The translations under genes were made by a program, and so were the position numbers. From Parcubacteria group bacterium (GTDB taxonomy: Bacteria; Patescibacteriota; Minisyncoccia; Moranbacterales; UBA2206): a stretch of 64,000 bases of DNA. Shown piece after piece: positions 2,833 through 58,922 of the stretch (positions are counted from its first letter, which is position 1; each line of letters starts with the position of its first letter). A model generated the notes under the pieces. It worked only from the letters and a program-made list of their open reading frames with translations. It ran no database searches and was not told where the DNA came from. Location: positions 33,206 to 97,205 of the forward strand of contig JBAZUU010000002.1 of the NCBI GenBank assembly GCA_041661275.1, read 5' to 3'.

Positions 2833-3252
2833 GTGTTTATTTCTAACGGGGTGAAACAAGTCATTGTTTTTGGAACTTTTGATATCTTTCACAAAGGACA
2901 TATGAGTTTTTTGCGCCAGGCTAAAAAATATGGCGACTTTTTATTGGTGGTCATTGCGAGAGATAGGATTGTCAAAAAAGTAAAAAGGAAATTACCCAGG
3001 AATAATGAAAAAAATCGGCTAAAAACAGTGGAGAATTCAGGATTAGCGGATGAGGTGGTTCTTGGACATCTGCGCGATATGTACGCTTTTATTAAAAAAT
3101 ATAAGCCTGATGTGATAGCCTTAGGCTACGACCAGACGGCCTTTGTGGATAAATTGGAAGAAAAACTTTTGTCCATGGATATGAAAAGTGTTAGAATTAT
3201 AAGGCTGAAAAGCTATCGGCCGAACATATATAAATCCTCTAAATTGATTTGA
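2833..3252 (+). CDS. Cytidylyltransferase-like nucleotidyltransferase (RibL/TagD-like, HxGH family)
   Basis: VFGTFDIFHKGHMSFL contains GxFDxxHxGH. True start probably internal to the listed ORF. Confidence 0.6.
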   Translation: MFISNGVKQVIVFGTFDIFHKGHMSFLRQAKKYGDFLLVVIARDRIVKKVKRKLPRNNEKNRLKTVENSGLADEVVLGHLRDMYAFIKKYKPDVIALGYDQTAFVDKLEEKLLSMDMKSVRIIRLKSYRPNIYKSSKLI

Positions 3253-3355
3253 TTATTTTTATAAATTAAGTTAACATTCATTTGATTGCCGGAATATCCG
3301 GTTTGTTGATGTTTTATTTTTGGGATATTATTTCTTTTTTTAATATTTTCATACT

Positions 3356-4069: not shown

Positions 4070-4185
4070 ATAAAATTTTCAATTTGAAATTTTAAATTTA
4101 AAATCAAATCTTAATTTAAAATTTTAAATTAAATCATTAAAAATTTATTTCAAATTTCAAATTAAAAATTTAAAATTTTAATCAC

Positions 4186-7112: not shown

Positions 7113-7746
7113 CAAATTTATGAGTAAGCTGGTTAATGAGTTGATAAAACAGGGATATCTTAAGTCCGACCTGATTATTGACGCCTTTTCTGAGATCAGC
7201 CGGGTTGAATTTGTTCCGCATGAATTGGAAAAGGAAGCAGAAGCGAACATCGCCCTCCCTATCGGTTATGGGCAAACCATTTCTCAGCCATTGACAGTGG
7301 CGTTTATGCTGGAACTTCTTGATCCAAAAAGAAGCCAAAATGTCCTGGACATTGGTTCCGGTTCTGGCTGGACAACCGCCCTTCTTTGCTATATAGTTGG
7401 GCGACATGGAAAAGTTACGGCTATTGAGCGAAAAGAGGAGCTTAAAAAAATGGGAGAAAAAAATACCGATAAATATGGATATCTCCGAAACGGAAAAGAT
7501 GGCATCGCTGAATTTTTTGTAGGCGATGGGACAAAAGGATTCAAAAAAAACGCGCCGTATGATAGGATTCTTGTATCTGCTTCGACTGAATGCGTCCCCA
7601 ACGATCTCAAAGAACAATTAAAAGTTGGAGGAAAGATGGTTGTCCCGCTTCGTCATAGTATTTGGTATATGGAGAAGAAAGGGGATAATGATTTTTACAA
7701 AGAAGAATATCCTGGGTTTGAGTTTGTACCGCTCATCGAAGACTAA
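7066..7746 (+). CDS. pcm: Protein-L-isoaspartate O-methyltransferase
   Basis: GYGQTISQP, VLDIGSGSGW and PYDRI motifs. Probable true start at 7120 (MSKLVNEL). Confidence 0.8.
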   Translation: MEREPATLSFRLWGYNKFMSKLVNELIKQGYLKSDLIIDAFSEISRVEFVPHELEKEAEANIALPIGYGQTISQPLTVAFMLELLDPKRSQNVLDIGSGSGWTTALLCYIVGRHGKVTAIERKEELKKMGEKNTDKYGYLRNGKDGIAEFFVGDGTKGFKKNAPYDRILVSASTECVPNDLKEQLKVGGKMVVPLRHSIWYMEKKGDNDFYKEEYPGFEFVPLIED

Positions 7747-7854
7747 AATTTGTAATTAGAAATTTTTAATTTTTAATGAATTTCTAATTACTAAATTTTA
7801 AAATTTTAAATTCAATAAAAATTTCAAATTAAAAATTAAAAATTACGAGTAAGG

Positions 7855-17903: not shown

Positions 17904-19103
17904 ATGGCTGAAATAAAACCACCGGTTGAAACATTCGCGCGGATAAAAGTTGTGGGAGTTGGAGGATCAGGAGGAAACGCGATTTCCAGGATGATCGAAG
18001 CAAAATTAAAAGGAGTGGAATTTGTGGCGATCAATACTGACGCGCAAGCTCTTCATCATAATAAAGCTGCAGAGAAAGTACACATTGGAAAAAACCTGAC
18101 CAAAGGTCTTGGAGCCGGAATGAATCCTGATGTTGGCCGACAAGCGGCTGAAGAAAATCGCGATGAAATCCAGGAAGTGCTCAAGGGTTCTGATATGGTT
18201 TTTGTCACTTGCGGTCTTGGTGGTGGAACAGGAACTGGTGCGGTTCCGATCGTAGCAGAAACGGCCAAAGAATTAGGAGCGCTCACTGTGGCTGTAGTGA
18301 CTAAGCCTTTCACCTTTGAAGGCGCTCAGAGAAGATCGATCGCTGATGAGGGGCTGGAAAATCTTCGAGAGAGGGTAGATACTCTCATTACCATTCCTAA
18401 TGATAAATTACTGCAAATTATCGATAAAAAAACCACTCTTATTAACTCTTTCAAGATTGTAGATGATGTTCTCAGGCAAGGTGTTCAGGGAATTTCCGAT
18501 CTCATAACAAAGCCTGGCGTGGTGAACGTCGACTTTGCCGATGTAAAAGCCATTATGTCCAATAGCGGTTCAGCTCTTATGGGAATCGGCCTTGGATCCG
18601 GAGAAAACCGAGCGGCAGAAGCGGCGAGAGCGGCTATCAACAGTCCACTTCTCGAGTTGTCTATTGACGGTGCCAAAGGCGTGCTATTTAATGTTTGTGG
18701 CTCTACTGACCTGACTATGCTTGAGATTAATGAAGCGGCGAATGTTATTACTGAATCTATTGATCCTAATGCCAAAGTGATTTTCGGAGCGGTAGTTGAT
18801 GAAACTTTGAAAAAAGGAGAGGTGCAAATTACAGTGGTAGCCACTGGATTCAATGAAGAAAAAGTTATGGAAAACCCGATCGAAAAATTGTCGAGAATTT
18901 CCATCAACGAATCGAGAAAAAAAGAATCATCTCCCGAGATGAAAATAACTTATCCGGAAAAATTCGAACCGAAGATGATTATTGACGAGCGAATTCCTCC
19001 GAAACCGGCAAAGATCAATCCTACTCCAAAGGAAAAAGAATTGAGCGATGATGATGACGAACTGGAAATCCCAGCTTTCATTAGGAGAAAGATGGGAAAG
19101 TAG
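17904..19103 (+). CDS. ftsZ: Cell division protein FtsZ
   Basis: [10 protein letters not shown] and [14 protein letters not shown] tubulin signature. Confidence 0.95.
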
Positions 19104-19108
19104 AAAAG

Positions 19109-19173
19109 TTATCCACCCCGTAAAGTCGCCGAAGCGGCGACAACGGGGCAAGCACCCTAAAAAGTTATCCACA
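19109..19173 (+). promoter_or_regulatory. Two DnaA-box motifs (TTATCCACC at 19109-19117, perfect TTATCCACA at 19165-19173), each preceded by AAAAG, upstream of nrdR
   Basis: Exact 9-mers read in the sequence. The repeated 13-mer aaaagttatccac occurs twice, 56 bp apart. Confidence 0.5.
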
Positions 19174-19192
19174 GGTATATAAAAAATCCCGT

Positions 19193-19218
19193 AAAACCCG
19201 CCACTTGGCGGGTTTTTT
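19193..19218 (+). terminator. Rho-independent terminator after ftsZ
   Basis: aaaacccgccacttggcgggtttttt. Confidence 0.8.
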
Positions 19219-19224
19219 GACTTG

Positions 19225-19233
19225 TGGTATAAT
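19225..19233 (+). promoter_or_regulatory. Extended -10 promoter element (TGGTATAAT) for nrdR
   Basis: TGnTATAAT read at 19225-19233. The upstream TTGACT is only 5 nt away, so it is probably not a functional -35. Confidence 0.5.
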
Positions 19234-19244
19234 GACATATACAT

Positions 19245-19260
19245 ACACAATATGTTGTAT
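19245..19260 (+). promoter_or_regulatory. Putative NrdR box (ACACAATATGTTGTAT) overlapping the nrdR 5'UTR
   Basis: 14/16 match to the published NrdR-box palindrome acaCwAtATaTwGtgt. Located between the -10 and the nrdR start. Confidence 0.45.
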
Positions 19261-19268
19261 ATAATTCT

Positions 19269-19718
19269 ATGAATTGTCCATTTTGTAACAATCAAGAAAC
19301 AAAAGTAGTAGATTCACGGGATACTAGTGATGGAAAAATAACCCGCAGACGTCGTGAATGCTTCAAATGCACTGCCCGGTTTTCCACTTATGAAGAAATA
19401 GAGCTTTTACGACTGGCCATCGTCAAAAAAGACGGTTCAAAAGTTGATTATGATAAGTGTAAAATCGAAGCGGGGATAAAAAAAGCATTGGAGAAGCGGC
19501 CAATCACTCAAGAAAGATTTGCCAAACTCATGGGAGACATCGAATATGATATGCGGTCGATGGAAAAGCCGGAAATAACCACCAGAGAAATCGGAAAAAT
19601 GGTGCTCAAAAAACTGAAAGAACTCGACGAAGTCGCTTATGTGCGATTTGCGAGCGTCTATAAATCATTCGGATCGATAGAGAGTTTCAAGAAAGAATTA
19701 GATACGTTTGACAAATAG
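19269..19718 (+). CDS. nrdR: Transcriptional repressor NrdR
   Basis: MNCPFCNNQETKVVDSRDTSDGKITRRRRECFKC zinc ribbon plus ATP-cone. Confidence 0.9.
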   Translation: MNCPFCNNQETKVVDSRDTSDGKITRRRRECFKCTARFSTYEEIELLRLAIVKKDGSKVDYDKCKIEAGIKKALEKRPITQERFAKLMGDIEYDMRSMEKPEITTREIGKMVLKKLKELDEVAYVRFASVYKSFGSIESFKKELDTFDK

Positions 19719-19722
19719 AAGA

Positions 19723-19837
19723 TAGTTGATTGGAAAATAGAAAATAGTTCAGGAAAAAAGAAATAGGAGAATGGAAAATCAAATTTCTAATTTCCACTTT
19801 CTTAAGCCATTTTCCTTTTTCTATTCAACTAATTTCT
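19723..19837. repeat. Imperfect palindromic intergenic element, family 'agttgattggaaaatag...gttcaggaaa...ccattttc...tattcaactaatttc' (copy 1)
   Basis: Related copies at 28201-28330 (opposite orientation) and 46171-46286. Arms are partially self-complementary. Confidence 0.65.
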
Positions 19838-19871
19838 TTATAATATTTTTTAATAATCTAATTTAATTGTT

Positions 19872-22067
19872 ATGATGGCAAAACAAAAACACAAATTGGG
19901 GGCGGCAATGGGGGGCGACCGGAAAAAGAAAAAGAAAATTACTAACAAGATCACAAAAATTGTGAAGCGCGACGGAACGGTGGCGGACTTCAGTCAGAAA
20001 AAGATTGTGGAAGCGGTTTACAAAGCTTTTTGCGAAACGGACGAAGCGGGTTTGAAGGAAGCGCGGATGGTGAGTGAAAAAGTCGTGTCTATGATGAACA
20101 GAAAAGCTATCCCTGATATTATTCCTAGCATCGAACAGATCCAGGACTTGGTGGAAAAAGTGCTGATGATCATGGATTTTGACGAAACGGCCAAGGCCTA
20201 TATTCTCTATCGTGATAAGCGGGCCAAGATCCGCGATACCGAAGCTTCACTCACTGAAGCAGTCGACTTAATTGAAAAATATATCCAAGAAATTGACTGG
20301 CAGGTGAAAGAAAATGCCAATATGGCTTACTCCTTACAAGGTCTTAACAACTACATTTCTTCTATTGTCAGCTCCAAATATTGGATGGATAGGGTTTATC
20401 CTAAATCTATTAAACGGGCTCACGAAGAAGGGGATTTCCATATTCATGACCTGGACAAGATCGCCGCCTATTGCTGCGGGTGGGACTTGCAGGATCTTCT
20501 GACGCGCGGTTTTACCGGAGTTTCCGGAAAACTTTCCTGCAAACCGCCAAAACACTTGCGAAGCGCTCTTGGACAGGTGGTGAACTTTTTCTACACTACT
20601 CAAGGCGAAACAGCTGGCGCGCAGGCCTTTTCCAATTTTGACACGCTTCTTGCTCCATTTGTGAGGTATGACAAGCTAAATTATGAATCAGTGAAGCAGG
20701 CGATGCAGGAATTTATTTTTAACCTTAATGTTCCAACCAGGGTCGGATTCCAGACACCATTTACTAATCTGACCATGGATCTCAATTGTCCTTCGACATA
20801 CAAAGATCAGAACGTTATTATTGGTGGGGTGCCGCAAAAAGAAAAATATTCTGATTTTCAAGAGGAGATGGATGTTATCAACCGCGCTTTTGCCGAAGTG
20901 ATGAGCGCTGGAGACGCTTCTGGCAGGGTGTTCACTTTTCCCATCCCAACTTATAACATTACTAAAGATTTTAAGTGGGACAATCCCAACCTTGATAAAG
21001 TTTGGGAAATGACTGCCAAATTTGGTATTCCATATTTTGCCAACTTCATCAATTCCGATATGAACGCGGATGACGCGCGCTCAATGTGTTGCCGATTGCG
21101 CCTCGATAACCGCGAACTGCATAAGCGGATGGGCGGGCTTTTTGGTGCGGCGCCTCTCACCGGATCGGTGGGGGTGGTGACACTTAATATGCCACGCCTT
21201 GGGTATCTGGCCAAAGACAAAAAAGATTACTTCAAGCGTCTTGACGATCTTATGGATTTGGCGAAAGAGAGTCTCGAGATGAAAAGAAAGATAATTGAAA
21301 ATTATACGGTCGGAGGCCTATATCCATACTCCAAATATTATCTGGACAACATTTTCAAGCGTCGCGGATCGTATTGGGGCAATCATTTTTCCACTATCGG
21401 ACTTCTCGGGCTCAATGAATCGCTGGTTAATTTCATGGGAGAAAGCATCACCTCGAAAAAGGGCCAGAAATTTGCCGAAGAGGTGCTAGAACATATGAGA
21501 GACAGGATGATAAAGTATCAGGGAGAAACGGGAAATCTATATAATCTGGAAGCGACACCGGCCGAAGGAACGAGTTACCGTCTGGCGCTCAAAGACAAAA
21601 AACGATTTCCTAAGATGATATTTGCCAATAATGGCGCGGTAGAAAAAGGCGCAGAGCCATACTATACTAATTCTTCACAGCTTCCAGTGAGTTATACCGA
21701 TGATATTTTTGAAGCGCTAGATCTTCAGGATAAGTTGCAAACTAAATACACTGGCGGAACGGTACTTCATGGATTTTTAGGAGAGCGGATCTATGATATA
21801 GAAACGACCAAAAAACTAGTGAAAAAGATCGCTTCCAACTATTCTTTGCCATATTTCACTCTTTCACCGACATTTTCCATCTGTCCTAATCACGGTTACA
21901 TCGAGGGTGAACATGCCACCTGTCCTAAATGCGTGGTAGAACAAAAATGTGAAGTTTATTCCAGGATAGTCGGTTATATCCGACCGATCGAACAATGGAA
22001 CGCCGGCAAAGCGCAAGAATTCATCGATAGGAAAGAATATAGGGTGAAGGCAAAGGTGGCAAAATAA
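19872..22067 (+). CDS. nrdD: Anaerobic ribonucleoside-triphosphate reductase (class III)
   Basis: N-terminal ATP-cone, C-terminal Zn ribbon CPNHGY...CPKC and glycine-radical motif SRIVGYIRP. Confidence 0.9.
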   Translation: MMAKQKHKLGAAMGGDRKKKKKITNKITKIVKRDGTVADFSQKKIVEAVYKAFCETDEAGLKEARMVSEKVVSMMNRKAIPDIIPSIEQIQDLVEKVLMIMDFDETAKAYILYRDKRAKIRDTEASLTEAVDLIEKYIQEIDWQVKENANMAYSLQGLNNYISSIVSSKYWMDRVYPKSIKRAHEEGDFHIHDLDKIAAYCCGWDLQDLLTRGFTGVSGKLSCKPPKHLRSALGQVVNFFYTTQGETAGAQAFSNFDTLLAPFVRYDKLNYESVKQAMQEFIFNLNVPTRVGFQTPFTNLTMDLNCPSTYKDQNVIIGGVPQKEKYSDFQEEMDVINRAFAEVMSAGDASGRVFTFPIPTYNITKDFKWDNPNLDKVWEMTAKFGIPYFANFINSDMNADDARSMCCRLRLDNRELHKRMGGLFGAAPLTGSVGVVTLNMPRLGYLAKDKKDYFKRLDDLMDLAKESLEMKRKIIENYTVGGLYPYSKYYLDNIFKRRGSYWGNHFSTIGLLGLNESLVNFMGESITSKKGQKFAEEVLEHMRDRMIKYQGETGNLYNLEATPAEGTSYRLALKDKKRFPKMIFANNGAVEKGAEPYYTNSSQLPVSYTDDIFEALDLQDKLQTKYTGGTVLHGFLGERIYDIETTKKLVKKIASNYSLPYFTLSPTFSICPNHGYIEGEHATCPKCVVEQKCEVYSRIVGYIRPIEQWNAGKAQEFIDRKEYRVKAKVAK

Positions 22068-22125
22068 TATACAATCGAGATTTGATAGGGGTGACTTCTT
22101 TTTTAGAGGTCGCTCCTTTAGTTAA

Positions 22126-22228
22126 TGTAAAAATCAAAAATCAAATCTCAAAATGACAAATCAAAATTAAAAAATGATTAAAATTTTGCATTTTACATTG
22201 TCATTTTTATTTTTGAGATTTTCATTTT
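22126..22228. repeat. AT-rich inverted-repeat element (same family as 12728-12846)
   Basis: aatgtaaaaatcaaaaatcaaatctcaaaatgacaaatc / ttgtcatttttatttttgagattttc arms. Confidence 0.5.
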
Positions 22229-22239
22229 AATTTTTTATT

Positions 22240-22941
22240 ATGAACATTGCTGGTTTCCAAAAACTAACCCTTATAGATTATCCGGGAAAACTGGCCACTA
22301 CTGTTTTCACGGTTGGTTGTTCTTTTCGTTGTCCATTTTGCCATAATCCGGAACTGGTTGATCGTGGATCATGGAATGTAGAACAAGACAGCAAAGAAAA
22401 AGAATTTTTTAAATTCCTGAAAATGAGACGGGGAACACTGGATGGAGTTTGCATCACGGGAGGGGAACCGACTATCCAGCCGGATATTATTGATTTTATA
22501 AAAAAGATAAAAAAAATGGGATTTGCCGTAAAGCTAGATACTAATGGTACTCGTCCAGACGTTCTGCGAAAGATAATCCGGGAAAAATTGGTGGATTTTA
22601 TCGCGATGGATATCAAAAATCATCCGGGGAAATATGACAAAACGACGGCCACCAAGGGAGATATTGACCGCATTAAATTAAGTGTGGAGTTGATTCGAAA
22701 CAGCGGCATTGATTATGAATTCCGAACAACAGTAGTTCCCGGTCTTCATGTTAAAGAAGACTTCAAAAAGATTGCTAAATGGCTCAAGGGTGCGAAATCA
22801 TATTGGCTGCAACGCTACCGCCAGTCCAAAATCCTTGACCCGACTTTGCCTAGCCGAGTCATAAAAGATAAGACTTTGGATTTGGAAAAAATATTAGAAA
22901 ATTTAACCCCGCATTTTGAGAATGTGGGGATAAGAGAATAG
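22240..22941 (+). CDS. nrdG: Anaerobic ribonucleotide reductase activating protein (radical SAM)
   Basis: CSFRCPFCHN CxxxCxxC radical-SAM cluster motif. Directly downstream of nrdD. Confidence 0.85.
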   Translation: MNIAGFQKLTLIDYPGKLATTVFTVGCSFRCPFCHNPELVDRGSWNVEQDSKEKEFFKFLKMRRGTLDGVCITGGEPTIQPDIIDFIKKIKKMGFAVKLDTNGTRPDVLRKIIREKLVDFIAMDIKNHPGKYDKTTATKGDIDRIKLSVELIRNSGIDYEFRTTVVPGLHVKEDFKKIAKWLKGAKSYWLQRYRQSKILDPTLPSRVIKDKTLDLEKILENLTPHFENVGIRE

Positions 22942-43637: not shown

Positions 43638-43937
43638 CTATATGACCTCGTAGACGTGCCTCTCAGGGGTTGAATAATCCAACTCCCTGAGTTTTTGATT
43701 GAGATTTAAATCTTTGGCCACCCGTTCGGGTTGCCATTGATTACCATCTTCAGTTTGAAACAGGGGAACACCGGAAAATTTTTCCGCCCTTAGTTTCAGG
43801 GAAATCATCTGTTTGCTGTTGCCCTGCGGACGGAATATCCGGGCGCGGGGGATTATTTGCAGTTCATTCTTGTAGATGCAAACAATGTCCCCTTGTGCCA
43901 GTGACGAAAGTTGGTCATCAGGCAGATATATGAGCAT
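43638..43937 (-). CDS. Hypothetical protein (99 aa), divergent from mraZ
   Basis: ORF only. No motif recognised. Confidence 0.3.
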   Translation of the reverse strand: MLIYLPDDQLSSLAQGDIVCIYKNELQIIPRARIFRPQGNSKQMISLKLRAEKFSGVPLFQTEDGNQWQPERVAKDLNLNQKLRELDYSTPERHVYEVI

Positions 43938-44217
43938 AGATCTTCTCCTTTTGGCCTCTTTAGGCTCGTATGTGGTTAACGTTTTTTCAGGTACGAAGCA
44001 TAATCTTATATCAATTTTTACAAAAAGTCAAGCCGTTGTGGATACAGTGTGTATAACTTTTCCGTTGGTGGCTTATCTAAGCCATTTTTTGTTTTTTTAA
44101 AATTAAAGCAAAAGTGTTGACGGCTGTATCTTGGTGGGATAGAATAGAGAGGTAGTAAATAAAAGTGGGGGGAAGTGGTAAATTAAAAATACAAGCACCT
44201 CCGCCTTTTGCGTCCTT

Positions 44218-58125: not shown

Positions 58126-58551
58126 TTGTTCACCTTCCTTTCTAGAGGATCCGCCTAATTTTTTTCAAGCAAAGCTCGAAAAAATTTTGGCGGAAAAATA
58201 AATTATTAAGGTGCTTACGTTGAAGCTTGCGGCTCTTGCGAGCGTCTCATATTAAATTCTAACAAAATCTGAACTGACGTCAACTAGACAAGCGGGTTAA
58301 AATAGGGCTTAATATGGGACATAGCACAGAATATTGGCGCCTAGGAAAGTTCCAGCTTCTTCGGAGTAATAATTTAAAATTTGAAATTTATAATTTGAAA
58401 TGAATTTGAAATGATTTAATTTTAAATTTAAAATTAAGATTTGATTTAAAATTATAAATTCTAAATTTAAAATTATTTTGAAATATTTTTTTCTGGTTGT
58501 GGTATTATCTTATGTTTTAGTTCTTTTTGAAAAAATATTTTTGAAAAAAAG

Positions 58552-58560
58552 TTATCCACA
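58552..58560 (+). promoter_or_regulatory. Perfect DnaA box TTATCCACA (with the same AAAAG prefix as the nrdR-upstream boxes) inside an ~800-bp AT-rich non-coding region
   Basis: aaaaagttatccaca read directly. The surrounding 58126-58922 has no convincing CDS. Confidence 0.5.
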
Positions 58561-58922
58561 GCAAAAAAAATAAATTTTTCTATTGCGTAAATATCATATT
58601 GGTATATAATTAAGTATAGAAAAATATTTTTCAAAATATTTTTTAAAACAAATGGTCGAAAACAAAAAAAGGATAAACGTATCCTATTAAAATAATTTAA
58701 ATTCCGCTTAAAATTTTTCGCGGAAAAATTAGAAAGGAAGGTGGAACCAAAATGGCTAAGAAAAAAAAGGCAGCAAAGAAGAAAAAAGCTACCAAGAAAA
58801 AGAAGAAACGATAGTCTTTTTTCTTGATATATTCTCGTTTGGCGCACAATTTTGCACCAGGGAGATACAAAAAACCCGTTCCGCTAAGCGTGATCGGGTT
58901 TTTTGCTTTTTATAAGCCAAAA

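Follow-up and report, generated by a model that had tools for sequence, protein, structure and literature searches.

A lone, rotationally phased DnaA box and a single NrdR box in the putative control region of a Candidatus Moranbacteria nrdR-nrdD-nrdG operon

Joint control of ribonucleotide reductase genes by DnaA and NrdR is a textbook arrangement in Escherichia coli, and earlier work holds that nrdA of this bacterium is repressed by high DnaA-ATP. Chromatin immunoprecipitation sequencing (ChIP-seq) places E. coli DnaA peaks at nrdA and nrdD, with DnaA bound upstream of both genes, and the same study describes nrdA as positively regulated by DnaA and reports DnaA control of nucleotide synthesis, replication and repair (PMC11317965). 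The sites bound by E. coli DnaA include gagTTATCCACAg at oriC and tggTTATCCACAg at DARS1 (PMC11317965). The characterised NrdR sites consist of two boxes lying 14-17 or 24-27 bp apart, a spacing also stated as 15-16 bp or roughly a helical turn longer (PMC12051234, PMC13584703), and the key positions of an NrdR box are C4, A6, A8, T9, T11 and G13 (PMC13584703). Here we analyse a 64-kb stretch of contig JBAZUU010000002.1 (assembly GCA_041661275.1) from a Parcubacteria group bacterium, hereafter the window, and within it the spacer between ftsZ and nrdR. We consider positions 19104-19262 likely to be the control region of an NrdR-autoregulated nrdR-nrdD-nrdG operon with a DnaA input in Candidatus Moranbacteria. 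An initial annotation had proposed that nrdR-nrdDG is co-regulated by DnaA and autoregulated by NrdR, linking the reductase to replication initiation; the conservation and spacing of the predicted sites, together with the operon structure, lend this proposal support.

Two DnaA motifs 56 bp apart, one of them a perfect TTATCCACA, had been annotated in the spacer, and both are present, matching the consensus at nine and eight of nine positions (Table 1). They share the 13-mer AAAAGTTATCCAC, which has exact copies at 19104-19116 and 19160-19172, 56 bp apart, and a third at 58547. The window contains the extended 12-mer AGTTATCCACAG twice in exact form, at 19163 (19163-19174) and 58550, and the count stays at two, against 0.19 expected, when up to one mismatch is allowed. 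For comparison we assembled 80 nrdR loci from species-representative genomes of related Patescibacteria, with NrdR identities of 53-86%. Counting both strands, 68 of the 80 have a perfect TTATCCACA in the 400 bp before nrdR; its density there is 2.17 per kb, 43 times the 0.051 per kb of the remaining 553 kb of these loci. The conserved consensus extends to AG-TTATCCACA-G, and the motif is asymmetric, as would be expected for a protein that, like DnaA, binds as a monomer. The box is kept whichever gene lies upstream. Because ftsZ is that gene in only 10 of the 80 loci, with a lexA-like gene or another gene elsewhere, the box belongs to nrdR and not to ftsZ, and a functional tie to ftsZ is rejected on the same count. 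Downstream, nrdR is followed by nrdD in 75 of the 80 loci. Two loci (L056 and L057) have nrdR directly 3' of ftsZ without nrdD after it, and their upstream region contains neither a DnaA box nor an NrdR box.

The position of the box was then expressed relative to the promoter. Fifty-nine of the 80 loci have a Moranbacteria-type promoter that could be anchored on TGTGGTATAAT, and distances were taken between the centre of the box and the first T of TATAAT. A perfect 9-mer lies within 220 bp of this -10 in 55 of the 59. The window has its box 2 in the forward orientation, centred 59 bp upstream of the -10, and forward boxes are found at -57 to -59 and also at -66 to -68. Most relatives have the box in the inverted orientation, where it is found at -55 (22 loci), -65 to -67 (9), -74 to -79 (10), -87/-88 (3) or -34 (1). 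These distances are best fitted by a period of 10.8 bp (R = 0.91, n = 45; R = 0.78 for unique values, p ~5e-4). Falkowbacteria-like loci (L064-L080), whose promoter reads TTGACC, 17 bp and a -10 of TGCTAAAAT, carry the DnaA box at -55, -66/-67 or -78. A rotational setting that is kept while the distance varies is expected if the bound protein must face RNA polymerase, and it counts against a pure titration site.

The second element of the control region is an NrdR box, and the annotated ACACAATATGTTGTAT before nrdR, with 14 of 16 positions matching the consensus ACACWATATATWGTGT, is confirmed at 19245-19260. With up to two mismatches this is the sole match to ACACWATATATWGTGT in the window; 0.02 matches of this quality are expected in shuffled sequence, a frequency that the initial annotation had asked to have checked, and 2 of 100 shuffles reach one match. 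If up to three mismatches are allowed, the number of matches in the window does not by itself reach significance (0.51 expected). Recurrence at orthologous loci, likewise suggested as a check, holds for both motifs, the perfect DnaA 9-mer being found in 68/80 loci and the NrdR box in 59/59 Moranbacteria-type promoters. In all 59 the NrdR box begins 11 bp past the -10 and has C4, A6, T11 and G13; with a transcription start some 7 nt past the -10, it would span approximately +5 to +20. The nrdR-nrdD spacers contain no NrdR box in any locus and, since nrdD follows nrdR, the box before nrdR is the sole NrdR site of the operon. Distant Patescibacteria loci, including L064-L080, keep a canonical NrdR pair, 32-33 bp start to start. 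On this comparison, the single box is a derived feature of Moranbacteria-type promoters. Two sequences of similar appearance were set aside as operators. TTGTGG before the -10 resembles an NrdR half-site and is a general promoter feature in this genome, and the NrdR-like ACTCAATATTTTGGCT, which directly follows the inverted DnaA box in a few loci, shifts along with the DnaA box and not with the operator.

These elements suggest the following mechanism. The hairpin and T-run at 19193-19218 would end ftsZ transcripts at 19218, and RNA polymerase would start about 7 nt after 19233, directed by TTGGCG, a 17-bp spacer and TGTGGTATAAT. NrdR, a dATP/ATP-sensing repressor, would bind the box 11 bp past the -10 and block initiation or promoter escape when deoxyribonucleoside triphosphates (dNTPs) are plentiful, so that its binding would amount to negative autoregulation of repressor and reductase together. 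DnaA would bind AGTTATCCACAG (19163-19174), a site of the high-affinity type with its centre some 70 bp ahead of the likely start, and would most likely contact RNA polymerase as class I activators do, so that expression of the reductase would depend on the state of the replication initiator. Direct contact is suggested because the box of the relatives is always on the same helix face relative to the -10. Activators that touch the alpha subunit of the polymerase typically sit upstream and locked to one face of the helix, and on this ground we lean towards activation of nrdR-nrdDG by DnaA, with repression as the other possibility.

Table 1 Features of the predicted control region and of the genes around it (window coordinates)
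Feature	Positions	Strand	Details
ftsZ coding sequence	17904..19103	+	Pfam Tubulin, FtsZ_C; upstream neighbour, outside the regulatory module
DnaA-box copy 1, AAAAGTTATCCACC	19104..19117	+	9-mer TTATCCACC (19109-19117), 8/9 to consensus; left copy of the duplicated target
GC-rich palindromic unit	19116..19153	+	CCCCGTAAA, inner stem, ACGGGG (19116-19148); conserved 3' block CGGGGCAAGC (19144-19153)
DnaA box 2, AAAAAGTTATCCACAG	19159..19174	+	9-mer TTATCCACA (19165-19173), 9/9; conserved flanks A-G...G
Intrinsic-terminator-like hairpin	19193..19218		AAAA, CCCGCC, ACTT, GGCGGG, TTTTTT
-35 hexamer TTGGCG	19205..19210	+	Promoter scan; CTTGGC fixed in the profile of 59 promoters
Extended -10, TGTGGTATAAT, TRTG-type	19223..19233	+	TATAAT 19228-19233 after TGTGG
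Single NrdR box, ACACAATATGTTGTAT	19245..19260	+	14/16 to ACACWATATATWGTGT; C4, A6, A8, T9, T11, G13 all present
nrdR, operon gene 1	19269..19718	+	Pfam Zn_ribbon_NrdR, ATP-cone
nrdD, class III ribonucleotide reductase, N-terminal ATP cone	19872..22067	+	Pfam NRDD, ATP-cone
nrdG, radical-SAM activase	22240..22941	+	Pfam Radical_SAM, Fer4_12

The ftsZ terminator and the extended -10 of the initial annotation were both recovered in place, by folding and by a promoter scan, respectively. The hairpin CCCGCC-ACTT-GGCGGG with its T6 (19197-19218) has a predicted energy of -17.8 kcal/mol (z = -4.6), and from its A-tract and T-tract flanks it looks bidirectional. Terminator and promoter are interleaved, the 3' arm of the hairpin holding the -35 hexamer and the T-run forming the promoter spacer, an arrangement found in about half of the 59 promoters. 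The promoter scores 10/12 with the TG motif and has the composition of a sigma-70 extended -10 promoter (TTGGCG, 17-bp spacer, TG-G-TATAAT). The anchored information profile of the 59 promoters reads cc.CTTGGCag.t.TTT..aTTGTGGTATAAT...a......TACACtAtATaTaGTaTaaAa, with nothing conserved beyond; the promoter elements keep invariant positions in it. TTGTnnTATAAT also precedes other genes of the window and is thus a general promoter form here. In many of the loci L004-L047 a conserved block TTTTGGCTTA(A/G)AAT stands between the inverted DnaA box and the -35, 10-11 bp after the box; it could be a second promoter, whose own -35 would overlap the DnaA box, or could pair with the -35 as the 5' arm of a weak hairpin.

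The ftsZ-nrdR spacer is 165 bp long, and ftsA, ftsZ, nrdR, nrdD and nrdG, identified by Pfam, all lie on the + strand. The best matches of the window's NrdR are in metagenome-assembled genomes of Candidatus Moranbacteria, and an identical NrdR protein is encoded on a 98-kb ENA contig, where the gene order is likewise identical. The class III enzyme is the sole reductase seen in the window. Both spacers within the operon contain a long AT-rich hairpin, at 19719-19868 between nrdR and nrdD (-33.3 kcal/mol, z = -3.6) and at 22068-22217 between nrdD and nrdG (-40.4 kcal/mol, z = -6.7); in relatives, comparable low-complexity inverted repeats are placed in a long nrdR leader instead of the operon spacers. 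The hairpins of the two spacers could be processing, stability or attenuation elements within the operon. At gathering thresholds, Rfam finds two tRNAs only in the window.

The GC hairpin that the initial annotation had noted between the two DnaA motifs is present and is longer than gtcgccgaagcggcgac, extending to CCCCGT...ACGGGG at 19116-19148 (-22.6 kcal/mol, z = -5.7). The paired boxes themselves are also there, 56 bp apart, but their spacing stems from an insertion: relative to L001, the closest relative (86% NrdR identity, also ftsZ-nrdR), positions 19116-19153 together with 19154-19172 form a 56-bp insertion, and L001 aligns with a single DnaA box. The insert starts exactly after AAAAGTTATCCAC, and the alignment reveals a similar insert in L104. 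Read in this way, copy-1 box and GC hairpin do not reflect an ancestral layout but belong to a 56-bp GC-rich palindromic insertion, placed directly 3' of TTATCCAC, by which the DnaA box was duplicated. The additional box that resulted is not conserved and may serve as a weak further site.

The inserted unit runs from CCCCGTAAA through a variable inner stem to ACGGGG and CA(A/G)GCAGG, followed by a short linker and a second 10-16 bp copy ending in TTATCCAC; expressed as a pattern, it is CCCCGTAAA...ACGGGGCARGCAGG. It recurs beside DnaA boxes at lexA (L006, L009, L112, L125), recA (L099), tuf (L088, L120) and nrdR (L015, L104), and the lexA site is filled in L009 and empty in L020. In an unbiased locus set the unit lies directly 3' of TTATCCAC in 4 of 5 instances, the fifth (L027) being without a box. 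The unit seems to be a small palindromic insertion that duplicates its target. It has no Rfam match, and no transposase or recombinase linked to it was found. Repetitive extragenic palindromes (REP) and miniature inverted-repeat transposable elements (MITE) offer the nearest likeness, as short GC-rich palindromes in an AT-rich genome, sporadic, intergenic and found in several genomes, with presence or absence at orthologous sites and 10-16 bp flanking repeats that here end in TTATCCAC. Unlike such families with their many copies, the unit occurs, across the sequence covered, once in the 64-kb window and once per related locus.

Other candidates for kinship with the unit were rejected. Readings of the hairpin as an integron attC site, a CRISPR repeat or an IS200/IS605 end do not fit the core motifs. 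The many metagenome matches in high-GC soil contigs come from a REP-like, multi-copy family that shows no conservation of TTATCCAC, and they resemble the unit because of the search pattern. The repeat in these contigs (L084-L129) is a multi-copy palindrome of about 110 bp, ...CCGGT(T)A(T/C)CCACCCCG-loop-CGGGGCAGGC..., usually placed between convergent genes; L091, for example, has this REP-like repeat, without Rfam match, at 4162, 5745 and, on the - strand, 2651. A separate arrangement was seen in L109 (~3180-3300) and L119 (~520-660), where a hairpin unit is flanked by two copies of the last 14 codons of glmS (VDKPRNLAKSVTVE and stop) that differ at synonymous positions only. There the TTATCCAC beside the hairpin is glmS coding sequence (GTG GAT AAA), and the arrangement looks like an integration carrying its own gene end. 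In L107 (~7700-7837), a Patescibacteria-like contig, tandem 37-nt GC-rich repeats (...ccttcggactacggcgggcaagcg...) adjoin a copy of the hairpin unit.

DnaA boxes also mark other promoters of the relatives. Of the perfect boxes at other places in the loci, about half precede a gene for a 222-aa lexA-like protein (Peptidase_S24, with a weak match to the LexA DNA-binding domain). In these promoters (L002-L047) the distance between the box centre and the -10 is constant (-36/-37), and the -10 itself lies within a palindrome, GTGATATAATATCAC, that is a candidate SOS box of this lineage. The recA promoter of L099 has the same arrangement, with GTGATATAATATCAC around the -10 and the DnaA box at -36/-37. 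The window itself has no lexA. Boxes are further found before unrelated genes, such as tuf, a gene for a 1057-aa secreted protein and DUF3276. The regulator repertoire of Patescibacteria is very small. It is conceivable, and we offer it tentatively, that DnaA serves in Patescibacteria as a general transcription factor of a replication and repair regulon (nrdR-nrdDG, lexA, recA), acting through a lone, rotationally fixed upstream box, alongside single-operator NrdR repression in the Moranbacteria branch, contrary to the two-box rule, and a small GC-rich palindromic element that inserts specifically beside DnaA boxes, copies them and thereby rewires promoters.

Two further regions of the window contain DnaA-type sites. 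A double box, TTATACACA-ct-GTATCCACA, lies at 44037-44061 with the 2-bp spacing of the pair geometry preferred by E. coli DnaA, 5 bp upstream of a TTGACT -35 that serves a 99-aa open reading frame (ORF) at 43638-43937 on the - strand. This ORF has no Pfam match, and its leader holds a third box-like site (region 43971-44061, - strand). The same spacer contains, at 44100-44217 on the + strand, an mraZ promoter (TTGACG, 17 bp, TAGAAT) followed by GTGGG-N5-GTGGT repeats that resemble MraZ boxes. The other region is an AT-rich spacer of 620 bp at 58130-58750 (GC ~0.33), in which the third exact copy of the 13-mer stands as AAAAGTTATCCACA at 58547-58560. It also has a promoter-like site, TTGTGGTATTAT, at 58497 and short tttgaaat/tttaaaatt repeats, and is followed by a lysine-rich 20-aa ORF, MAKKKKAAKKKKATKKKKKR, at 58752-58814 with a strong ribosome-binding site in front.

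Three other readings of the region were weighed. AGTTATCCACAG could be the site of a different Patescibacteria transcription factor, which we regard as unlikely. Such a factor would account for the motif before promoters without a replication role (such as those of tuf, the 1057-aa secreted protein and DUF3276) and for a lone site in place of the double boxes of E. coli, yet the core of the motif is identical to the widely conserved DnaA 9-mer, with flanks like those of E. coli sites bound by DnaA, and the motif is asymmetric, whereas palindromic or repeated sites are the rule for most other bacterial regulators. Conservation is highest at genes of nucleotide supply and the SOS response (nrdR-nrdDG, lexA, recA), which agrees with the reported E. 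coli DnaA control, and the 2-bp-spaced double box at 44037-44061 points the same way. It is also improbable that DnaA occupies the boxes as titration or initiator-reactivation sites of the datA or DARS kind, or that they are leftovers of mobile elements, without effect on nrdR-nrdDG transcription. The copy-1 box did come with the insertion, the palindromic unit spreads box copies to several promoters, and some strong E. coli DnaA sites are non-transcriptional (PMC11317965). Titration needs no fixed rotational setting, however, yet an 11-bp ladder of distances to the -10 is seen in two divergent lineages, the box position is fixed at -36/-37 in lexA and recA promoters, and the box is lost together with the NrdR box where nrdD does not follow nrdR.

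That 19104-19218 is a structured 3' untranslated region (UTR), or a small RNA derived from one, with the boxes being RNA sequence, we think very improbable. The stretch would be co-transcribed with ftsZ and has two stable hairpins (-41.1 kcal/mol, z = -4.5), the second with a U-run. Its best Rfam match in a permissive scan of 19050-19300 nevertheless reaches 23.5 bits against a gathering score of 43, and the higher-scoring matches fall on the terminator and the downstream promoter, not on the first hairpin; a scan of ten related loci returned nothing relevant. The box-hairpin-box composite also occurs elsewhere after unrelated genes or a separate terminator, as in L009, and an RNA element should keep its strand, yet most relatives have an inverted box and no neighbouring ftsZ.

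Set against these alternatives, an operon under DnaA and NrdR control is the reading that we prefer, and several observations weigh against it. The 59 anchored promoters have no partner NrdR box at any offset from -70 to +70; at the canonical offsets (+31/+32, -31/-32 and +/-42/43) a box with the four key positions is found in 0/59, and in the information content no partner stands out as conserved between -75 and +59. For E. coli NrdR, binding to a lone box is 530- to 1000-fold poorer than to a pair (PMC12051234). With no partner box, NrdR repression here would need a lineage-specific binding mode or a helper. E. coli DnaA, in turn, uses mostly double boxes 2-3 bp apart and occupies less than half of the lone consensus boxes (PMC11317965). 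No second box adjoins the conserved DnaA box at 2-3 bp, its flanks being A/T-rich, and as a lone box the conserved site is unlike the double boxes that E. coli DnaA prefers. No dnaA was found in the window or in 83 loci by tblastn with a Bacillus subtilis DnaA query, nor was an origin found in the window or the fetched loci, and the GC skew does not change sign in the window. The loci are mutually related, so that the counts given above exceed the number of independent events, and because relatedness inflates counts we attach more weight to the ladder of distinct distance classes and to the fact that it recurs in a second lineage. A similar caution applies to covariation at the terminator: a 10-pair helix with 100% of cells paired (slid controls, 40-62%) and compensatory changes at 4 pairs (CCGCC/GGCGG, CTGCC/GGCAG, TCGCC/GGCGA) were obtained with 14 relatives hand-picked by eye for a tight hairpin, which favours structure.

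Within the library that was searched we found no paper mentioning both 'DnaA box' and Patescibacteria, and literature searches with sequence strings returned unrelated primers only. If the preferred reading of DnaA and NrdR control holds, the link between replication and dNTP supply would extend to these tiny bacteria. New here is a putative DnaA-NrdR coupling that is near-universal and geometrically constrained in a large uncultured radiation with essentially no described transcriptional regulation. Also new is a single-box NrdR operator in 59 related genomes, which challenges the two-box requirement measured for the NrdR proteins of E. coli and Streptomyces coelicolor and offers a natural test case for the NrdR binding mode. 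A short palindromic insertion that seems to duplicate DnaA boxes at several promoters is a third novelty. Together, these findings would aid the reading of regulons in genomes that are not yet culturable.

Compared with known systems, the locus resembles E. coli nrdAB and nrdDG in having a DnaA box upstream of the reductase promoter and an NrdR operator at or near the start site, and the boxes bound by E. coli DnaA have the gTTATCCACAg form, with flanks as in AG-TTATCCACA-G. It differs in that the E. coli NrdR sites are pairs of boxes, against one here, and in that nrdR lies outside the reductase operons of E. coli, whereas here it is the first operon gene. In this last respect the closer likeness is to S. 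coelicolor nrdRJ (operon named in PMC13584703), where nrdR is also first in the reductase operon and an NrdR operator lies at its own promoter, so that the enzyme and the repressor itself are both under NrdR control. That operator, however, has two boxes with a 15-bp linker, the enzyme is of class II and no DnaA box is described, in contrast to the single box, class III enzyme and conserved DnaA box found here. The canonical NrdR operator (Rodionov and Gelfand 2005; Rozman Grinberg, Sjoberg and colleagues) is likewise a 16-bp partial palindrome over a reductase promoter or start site, but its second box is missing in 59/59 Moranbacteria-type promoters. Overall, and as far as sequence comparison can speak, the region follows the known principle of joint DnaA and NrdR control and departs from it in lacking the second NrdR box and an adjacent DnaA double box.

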